A stretch of DNA of 64,000 nucleotides from Escherichia coli (GCF_965641715.1 NZ_OZ282453.1); one strand, 5' to 3'. Numbered from the stretch's first letter, positions 27,092 through 27,643 are shown. The notes: a model not told the origin generated them from the letters alone. Numbers and translations: made by a program.

Positions 27092-27456
27092 TCACCATAA
27101 CTGCTAACCATTCTGACCATTTCACAAGTGACAGAGTCAATATCGTATTCTGTCACTGTAAGGCTAATACAGTACTGCAATTCAACTACAGCAATGCCTC
27201 GTATTTAGGTGAATTTACAATATCGTCCAGTTCGGATGCCGGCTGCATTTCTGAAGATAAGGCATTTCGGTTCGCGTATTTTCCCCTCATGCTCGTCAGT
27301 CCTGCGCGTAGTAAGAAACAGGACACTCACACTAATTTGTGTGGGCATGCTGTGATGTCCTTCTGAATTATCCCCATGCCATTATGTAACGCTCTGTTTC
27401 AGATGCTCGTCACGGTTGTCAGGCTGTCGGGTCCTCCCAGTGGGGGTCCCTGCCAC

Positions 27457-27474
27457 GGGGCGGGAGCGTCGCGG
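27457..27474. other. Candidate cos site (cosN-like GGGCGGGAGCGTCGCGG)
   Basis: Resembles the lambda cohesive-end region GGGCGGCGACCTCGCGG and lies ~170 bp upstream of the small terminase gene. Confidence 0.4.
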
Positions 27475-27643
27475 AAAAAGGCTAGTTTTTGAAATTTTAT
27501 TCGTCATCACCACTACTTTAATTGATTGATATTACAGTGGTTTTATTTTTATGGTGTCGATTCTGATTGTTTTTTGTTCATCACTAACACCGTTTGCCTA
27601 AAGTTGTTCGCAAGATGCATGTTTAAAACATTCTGGAGCGGGT

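Follow-up and report, generated by a model that had tools for sequence, protein, structure and literature searches.

Lambda-like phages have been defined by 12-base 5′ cohesive ends that resemble those of lambda, as described by the Feiss laboratory (PMC4669245). In this group, the CG pairs next to the nicks are strongly conserved, the cosQ element is invariant, and differences within bp 7-12 of the cohesive end are common, as in N15 (positions 9 and 12) and Gifsy-1 (positions 8, 9 and 11) (PMC4669245). Large terminases of the gpA family make 5′ cohesive ends. In phi80, 21 and Gifsy-1, cosB is arranged R3-I1-R2-R1 with R2 inverted (PMC9026076). For Ayreon, cos was predicted from the phylogeny of the large terminase (TerL), and the site was said to be “expected” upstream of the small terminase gene, terS (PMC5764929). 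The cos of LLS/mEp213 has been described as “inferred” (PMC12315714), and Tritos forms plaques and siphovirus particles, the paper being silent on how its ends were set (PMC9928086). Our literature search found no physical mapping of virion ends for this group of phages and no paper describing the related Hafnia phage yong2.

We analyzed a 64,000-nt stretch of Escherichia coli DNA (GCF_965641715.1, NZ_OZ282453.1; hereafter the window), in which a candidate cos region had been proposed upstream of a terminase gene. With a probability of about 0.84, we conclude that 27429..27592 is the cos of a temperate, lambda-like phage whose packaging module is of the Gifsy/cdtI/mEp460 type and which is integrated at the Qin locus.

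cosQ and cosN

The original prediction had noted a likeness to the lambda cohesive end, and this likeness is real. Joining the right and left ends of lambda for alignment gave ...ACGGGTCCTTTCCGGTGATCCGACAGGTTACG, then GGGCGGCGACCT, then CGCGGGTTTTCGCTA..., beside which the window reads ...TGTCGGGTCCTCCCAGTGGGGGTCCCTGCCACG, then GGGCGGGAGCGT, then CGCGGAAAAAGGCTA.... cosQ and cosN line up base for base. The packaging-termination element cosQ (27429..27435, + strand) is GGGTCCT, identical to lambda 48473..48479, and it lies 22 nt from the predicted top-strand nick, compared with 23 nt in lambda. From the lambda alignment and from conservation, the 16-bp cosN occupies 27456..27471 (+ strand) and consists of GGGCGGGAGCGT with CG on either side. 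By homology to lambda GGGCGGCGACCT, the predicted 12-nt 5′ cohesive end GGGCGGGAGCGT occupies 27458..27469 (+ strand). The two 12-mers are identical at 8/12 positions, including all of bp 1-6, with mismatches solely at bp 7, 8, 9 and 11. The flanks are also the same as in lambda, with ACG before the 12-nt end and CGCGG after it; the window reads CACG...CGCGG. CG dinucleotides flank both predicted nicks (27456-27457 and 27470-27471) and are invariant in six relatives. The window conforms to all three points made for lambda-like phages: variation within bp 7-12, CG flanks and cosQ. Two-fold symmetry across the 16-bp cosN holds at 8/16 positions, compared with 10/16 in lambda. The string originally quoted for the cohesive end is indeed present, but not at the range given for it: the 17-nt GGGCGGGAGCGTCGCGG is 27458..27474, and 27457..27474 takes in one extra G.

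A search of the window with the 20-nt lambda cosN, allowing up to 3 mismatches, returned no match, because the site carries 4 mismatches. In its place we used a composite cosQ-cosN pattern, built solely from positions reported to be conserved in lambda-like phages. This pattern, GGGTCCT-N(18-26)-CGGGGCGG-N6-CG, occurred once in the window and in 0/100 dinucleotide-preserving shuffles.

Deposited phage genomes end at this site. The records of cdtI (AB285204) and Tritos (OV696610) begin GGGCGGGAGCGTCGCGGAAAAAGGCTAGTTTTT, their first 12 bases being GGGCGGGAGCGT, and end ...CCTGCCACG; therefore, two groups opened their genomes at the junction 27457/27458. The record of Hafnia phage yong2 (MZ516527) begins CGCGGGAAACGGCTAGTTTTT and ends ...GAG GGGGCAGCGACA, so that its break is 12 nt further on, at the position homologous to the bottom-strand nick, 27469/27470. 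In LLS (PQ299149), the first 12 nt, GGGCGGCGCGCT, are annotated as a 5′ cohesive site and are preceded by GGGTCCT-N22. On the basis of homology and of where depositors chose to end their records, we infer nicks at 27457/27458 on the top strand and at 27469/27470 on the bottom strand; by analogy, the overhang is predicted to be 5′. The record of mEp460_4F5 (LR595868) opens 5 nt upstream of the predicted top-strand nick and is without 3 nt (TCG) inside the 12-mer, which is probably an assembly artefact at a physical DNA end and not a real variant. A full-text literature search found no phage paper containing GGGCGGGAGCGT, its reverse complement or GGGCGGCAGCGT.

In the six relatives, cosQ (7/7) and cosN (16/16) were fully conserved. 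Variation was seen in the left flank (conserved at 12-29/29 positions), in the spacer between cosQ and cosN (15-18/20) and in cosB. CG flanks exactly 12 nt apart were found in the window, cdtI, Tritos, LLS, Fels-1 and Pmp14. Both yong2 and Chris1 retain the 12-nt frame with its downstream CG, but have AG as the upstream dinucleotide. A search with CGGGGCGG, allowing one mismatch, found no site in Gifsy-2, Chris1 or Pmp14, and the cosN candidates in these three phages, which came from a relaxed pattern or were picked by eye, are less certain than those of the E. coli phages.

The site is an ordinary cos and is already known from public phage records. It is very common in E. coli: a 71-nt core query matched 2034/5426 complete E. 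coli genomes, with up to 7 copies per genome. Among the matches listed, the 63-bp core of cosQ, cosN and the adjoining I2-like segment (27429..27491) carried no annotated feature, and RefSeq leaves cos unannotated. Many of the longer BLAST matches have a boundary here, either ending at 27491 or beginning at 27429; therefore, the core is a junction between exchangeable modules.

Candidate cosB and terminase genes

Downstream of cosN the DNA is AT-rich, as had been claimed: 27475..27643 has 33% G+C, compared with 72% for 27400..27474 and 49% for the whole window. Between cosN and cosB lies an I2-like segment, CGCGGAAAAAGGCTAGTTTTTG... (27470..27497, + strand), recognized by its conservation and its register with lambda, in which G24-C25-T26-A27 and T29-T30 align. 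It is conserved at 24-26/26 positions among relatives and is common to cdtI, Tritos, LLS and yong2 despite their different cosB.

Of the IHF and cosB-like elements that had been proposed ahead of terS, a perfect IHF consensus is present, together with candidate boxes. The IHF consensus, TATCAATCAATTA (WATCAANNNNTTR), lies at 27519..27531 on the - strand (bp 62-74 of the predicted left end) and is the candidate I1. There are 5 perfect IHF sites in the 64 kb on both strands, compared with about 3 expected, and it is unlikely that one would fall by chance inside the 174-nt interval between cosN and terS. A perfect or one-mismatch IHF core is found at the same place in cdtI, Tritos, 569R4, 4F5 and Gifsy-2, the cosB of cdtI and Tritos being otherwise unrelated to that of the window; IHF would be expected to bind at the candidate I1.

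Three further elements are putative small-terminase boxes. The candidate R3 (27500..27515, + strand), identified as a repeat and by pattern, has the core TCATCACCA at 27504..27512 (bp 47-55); the candidate R2 (27549..27564, - strand), which is inverted relative to R3 and R1, has the core TCGACACCA at 27552..27560; and the candidate R1 (27574..27589, + strand) has the core TCATCACTA at 27578..27586 (bp 121-129). A repeat search paired 27487..27510 with 27561..27584, and the R3 and R1 candidates form a direct repeat, identical at 11/16 positions when aligned on TCATCAC; R3 and R2 have only 8/16 positions in common. The consensus TCRWCACYA, which was derived after the fact from these same three boxes, has 9 matches in the window, three of them within a span of 83 nt in cosB in the orientation +,-,+. 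The resulting candidate order, R3(+) I1(-) R2(-) R1(+), would be that of lambda, where R3 (+) lies at bp 53-64, I1 (-) at 79-91, R2 (-) at 109-120 and R1 (+) at 155-166. We consider the chances that the boxes have been assigned correctly to be roughly even.

A reading of this region as a regulatory RNA or a terminator was dropped: Rfam found no RNA family in 26800..27700, the cos region held no terminator-like site, and its promoter-like sites were at chance level.

The genes that follow are those of a packaging and head module. The small terminase gene terS (27644..28138, + strand) has its start at bp 187, counted from the predicted left end (bp 191 in lambda), and encodes 164 aa matching Pfam DUF1441 (E 2.7e-41) and PHROG 141, “terminase small subunit” (E 7e-74). 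The large terminase gene terL (28138..30240, + strand; 700 aa) matches GpA_ATPase (E 4.8e-71) and GpA_nuclease (E 1.1e-85). An ORF assigned as W-sized by position and size only (30231..30449) is followed by a lambda-family portal (30377..31957) and a fusion of a ClpP protease to the major capsid protein (31710..33929), both recognized by Pfam. This is the module order found after cos in the Gifsy/cdtI/mEp460 type: DUF1441 terS, gpA-like terL, portal and ClpP-capsid fusion. NCBIfam had no model matching TerS or TerL.

TerS is 100% identical to the proteins of Ayreon, phi458, 569R4 and 813R6 and 99.4% identical to that of mEp460; identity falls to 42% with cdtI and to 41-48% with Gifsy-2 and Fels-1. 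For TerL, the identity is 25% with lambda gpA (626 columns) and 88% with cdtI TerL. The identity to cdtI TerL is near-complete from about residue 380 and lower before it, and the first ~20 residues do not align.

DUF1441 was the sole Pfam match of TerS, which places the protein outside the Nu1 family. PHROG 57 matched TerS with an E of 8e-10, against 7e-74 for PHROG 141, and an hhalign comparison of the TerS profile with Nu1 gave a weak match (probability 17.5%, E 0.0014) that was colinear over 140 columns. Because the small terminase is of the DUF1441 family and not Nu1, this cosB is of the Gifsy/cdtI/mEp460 type and not of the lambda/21 type.

The DNA-binding domain of Nu1 has been described as MerR/BmrR-like. 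An AlphaFold model of TerS, made from a 9-sequence alignment (mean pLDDT 74.6), has the N-terminal elements E9-11, H12-19, H23-30, a loop, E45-47 and H48-56, with pLDDT 65-77 in this part. As modelled, residues 9-56 would have a winged helix-turn-helix topology, shifted by about 6-7 residues from that of Nu1, whose helix and wing positions we took from PMC9026076. A Foldseek search of the model against the PDB gave no significant match, none having an E below 0.38; the best local matches were MerR-type winged helix-turn-helix domains, for example those of RacA, BldC and MtaN, at 2-3 Å over ~47 columns. A sequence search of TerS against PDB chains returned noise only.

The prophage and alternative readings

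The prophage is flanked by rspB (5428..6471) on one side and by a ydfJ-like transporter gene (52207..53490) on the other; this is the Qin site of K-12. It spans about 6500..51500, from the integrase gene (6659..7954, - strand) to the stf, tfa and invertase (pin) genes (46687..50871), and terS, terL, the genes for the portal, the ClpP-capsid fusion and the tail, stf, tfa, int and the genes of the xis region are all open and full length. It also carries the Qin genes dicB, ydfD, hokD, rem, cspB, cspI, ynfN and gnsB. The prophage thus looks like an intact relative of cryptic Qin with a full set of head, tail and fibre genes. Upstream of cos, an ORF the size of a lysozyme gene (24138..24671) is followed by one the size of Rz (24668..25165); in a near-identical prophage, these two are annotated as rrrQ and rzpQ. 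Att core repeats were not found in a search with exact words of 9-12 nt.

Several other features of the prophage were seen in passing. A perfect IHF consensus, TATCAAATAGTTG, at 6637..6649 (- strand), within the 187 nt that separate rspB from the integrase gene, is probably part of an att arm. The Rfam model of the cspA thermoregulator matches 25371..25787 (+ strand; 110 bits, E 2e-28); the match takes in both the leader and the coding sequence of a prophage cold-shock gene (25526..25741), which is situated between the lysis genes and cos. A 449-aa ORF (15673..17022, - strand) matches the PADLOC model of the anti-phage defence protein PD-T7-1 (E 4e-157) and has no Pfam or NCBIfam match. It looks like a defence moron, because the segment that holds it is missing from the prophage of strain STEC1590, which is colinear elsewhere. 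In STEC1590 (NZ_CP129345, 40001..41401), the prophage ends at an IS3 element with maeA directly after it, and it is without the side tail fibre, the invertase and the right attachment site, which suggests that an IS-mediated deletion or rearrangement stranded it.

The alternative that we take most seriously, while judging it unlikely, is that this cos is present by descent in a defective prophage like Qin and that no packaging starts here. The prophage does occupy the Qin site and carries the Qin genes dicB, hokD, cspB and cspI, its close relative in STEC1590 has lost the tail-fibre end to an IS3 element, and the search for att core repeats was negative. Against such decay, the packaging and structural ORFs are all intact, TerS is 100% identical to that of plaque-forming Ayreon, and the cos core is identical to that of viable Tritos. 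That a genuine cos is cut with another nick geometry or polarity, leaving an overhang of another length or a 3′ extension of the HK97 type, is less probable again. Spacing does vary among relatives: VT1-Sakai is one base shorter between ACG and GCGG, and in Gifsy-2 CACG and CGCGG are 14 nt apart. In addition, the TerL of the window is only 25% identical to gpA. However, the 12-nt frame between CG pairs is kept in the closest relatives of the window, records end at both predicted nick positions, and the gpA family is a family of 5′ cos enzymes.

Two further readings have almost no weight. Phage-inducible chromosomal islands (PICIs), which hijack helper phages, have a near-identical, identically spaced pair of cosQ and cosN but a cosB that diverges (PMC9026076), so the cos could in principle belong to such an island and not to the phage itself. 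Here, however, it belongs to a prophage of ~45 kb with a full set of terminase, portal, capsid and tail genes and not an rppA-type redirecting gene, and it has an IHF site and repeated candidate boxes, which are absent from the cos of PICIs (PMC9026076). An equally slight chance attaches to a fortuitous G+C-rich motif in a phage that packages headful from a pac site: the composite pattern appeared in none of the 100 shuffles, the site is a conserved island amid variable flanks, TerL is gpA-type, and three deposited genomes end here.

Returning to a functional cos of the phage itself, the original proposal of a packaging start of a cos-type phage is supported: cosQ, cosN, an AT-rich candidate cosB with an IHF consensus, terS and terL follow one another in the expected order and orientation, TerL belongs to the gpA family, and the cdtI and Tritos records open at this site and that of yong2 at the other nick. 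Viable, plaque-forming phages carry the same modules, namely the TerS of Ayreon and the cos core of Tritos.

Proposed packaging model and comparison with known phages

By homology with lambda, packaging might proceed as follows. Following induction and a phase of rolling-circle replication, the DUF1441 small terminase would bind R3, the inverted R2 and R1 as dimers, and IHF would bend the DNA between R3 and R2. The resulting TerS/IHF complex at cosB would anchor the gpA-family large terminase on cosN, where it would nick at 27457/27458 (top) and 27469/27470 (bottom) to give the 12-nt 5′ ends GGGCGGGAGCGT; rejoined, the cohesive ends would read ...CCACGGGGCGGGAGCGTCGCGG.... Terminase would remain bound to the end that carries cosB, dock on the portal and move the DNA rightwards, so that the terS side enters first. 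The terminating cut would be directed by cosQ (27429..27435) and cosN when the following cos of the concatemer is reached.

Marking cos would place the left end of the phage genome correctly, at 27458, and give the direction of packaging; the position of cos shows which host or moron genes adjoin the packaging origin. Since cosQ and cosN are shared with lambda-like helpers, the phage could in principle serve PICIs or package cosmids. The conserved 63-bp core between exchangeable modules illustrates the mosaicism of lambdoid phages, which is not a new concept.

What may be mildly new, and is put forward as a proposal, is solely how the boxes of this variant of cosB are arranged and how they covary with TerS. 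A second group of relatives (type B, the window being type A) has the boxes TTCGACAT and a TerS 86.5% identical to that of the window, with an identical cosQ-cosN core. Between the window and type B, conservation is 10-11/19 in R3, 5/16 in R2 and 8/16 in R1, R2 being the most divergent segment between the two types, compared with 10-13/13 in the T-run spacer (12/13 in three of four relatives) and 40/51 in the stretch before terS. The predicted recognition helix of TerS reads RQTAAARL in type A, the window included, and RQTVVARL in type B. At the place corresponding to R2, clear R2/R1 inverted repeats are seen in Gifsy-2 and Fels-1 as well as in the type-B relatives. Judging from these sequences, it is conceivable, if on balance doubtful, that the type A and type B pairs of cosB and TerS represent two packaging specificities within the DUF1441 lineage. 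If they do, the two types would be a natural minimal pair, like lambda and 21, for the reading of DNA by DUF1441 small terminases.

Among described phages, the whole cos region is 87-97% identical in mEp460, Ayreon, phi458 and vB_EcoS-569R4, which have the same type of cosB; their records were opened just before terS and not at cos, and no cos is annotated in them. Ayreon, a viable siphovirus, has a TerS identical to that of the window. cdtI and Tritos share cosQ, cosN with GGGCGGGAGCGT and the next 21 nt, all identical, and a small terminase of the DUF1441 family, but their cosB is unrelated from about 27492 on. Because cosB, TerS (42%) and the start of TerL all differ from those of cdtI, it appears that one exchange replaced cosB, terS and the 5′ end of terL together. 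The N-terminus of gpA binds Nu1 in lambda, and the joint exchange would therefore be that of one functional block; the nuclease end of terL seems to have remained with cosQ and cosN.

Similar to lambda, the window has the cosQ heptamer, bp 1-6 of the cohesive end and its flanks, terS at about bp 190 and a gpA-family TerL, and its candidate boxes would give the order R3-I1-R2-R1. In contrast to lambda, its cosB, with the boxes as proposed, is more compact (R3 at bp 47-55 compared with 53-64, R1 at 121-129 compared with 155-166), the box sequence is unrelated, there are four changes within bp 7-12, the small terminase is not the Nu1 of lambda, and TerL is only 25% identical. Gifsy-1/Gifsy-2 and Fels-1 of Salmonella share the DUF1441 TerS, the gpA-like TerL and the ClpP-capsid fusion of the head. 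Their cosQ is GGTACTCC, whereas that of the window is GGGTCCT; their cohesive ends differ from that of the window, the end of Fels-1 being GGGCGGCAGCGG; and their cosB boxes, TTCGACACTGAA in Gifsy-2 and TCATCATCTT in Fels-1, both arranged as R2/R1 inverted repeats, differ as well.
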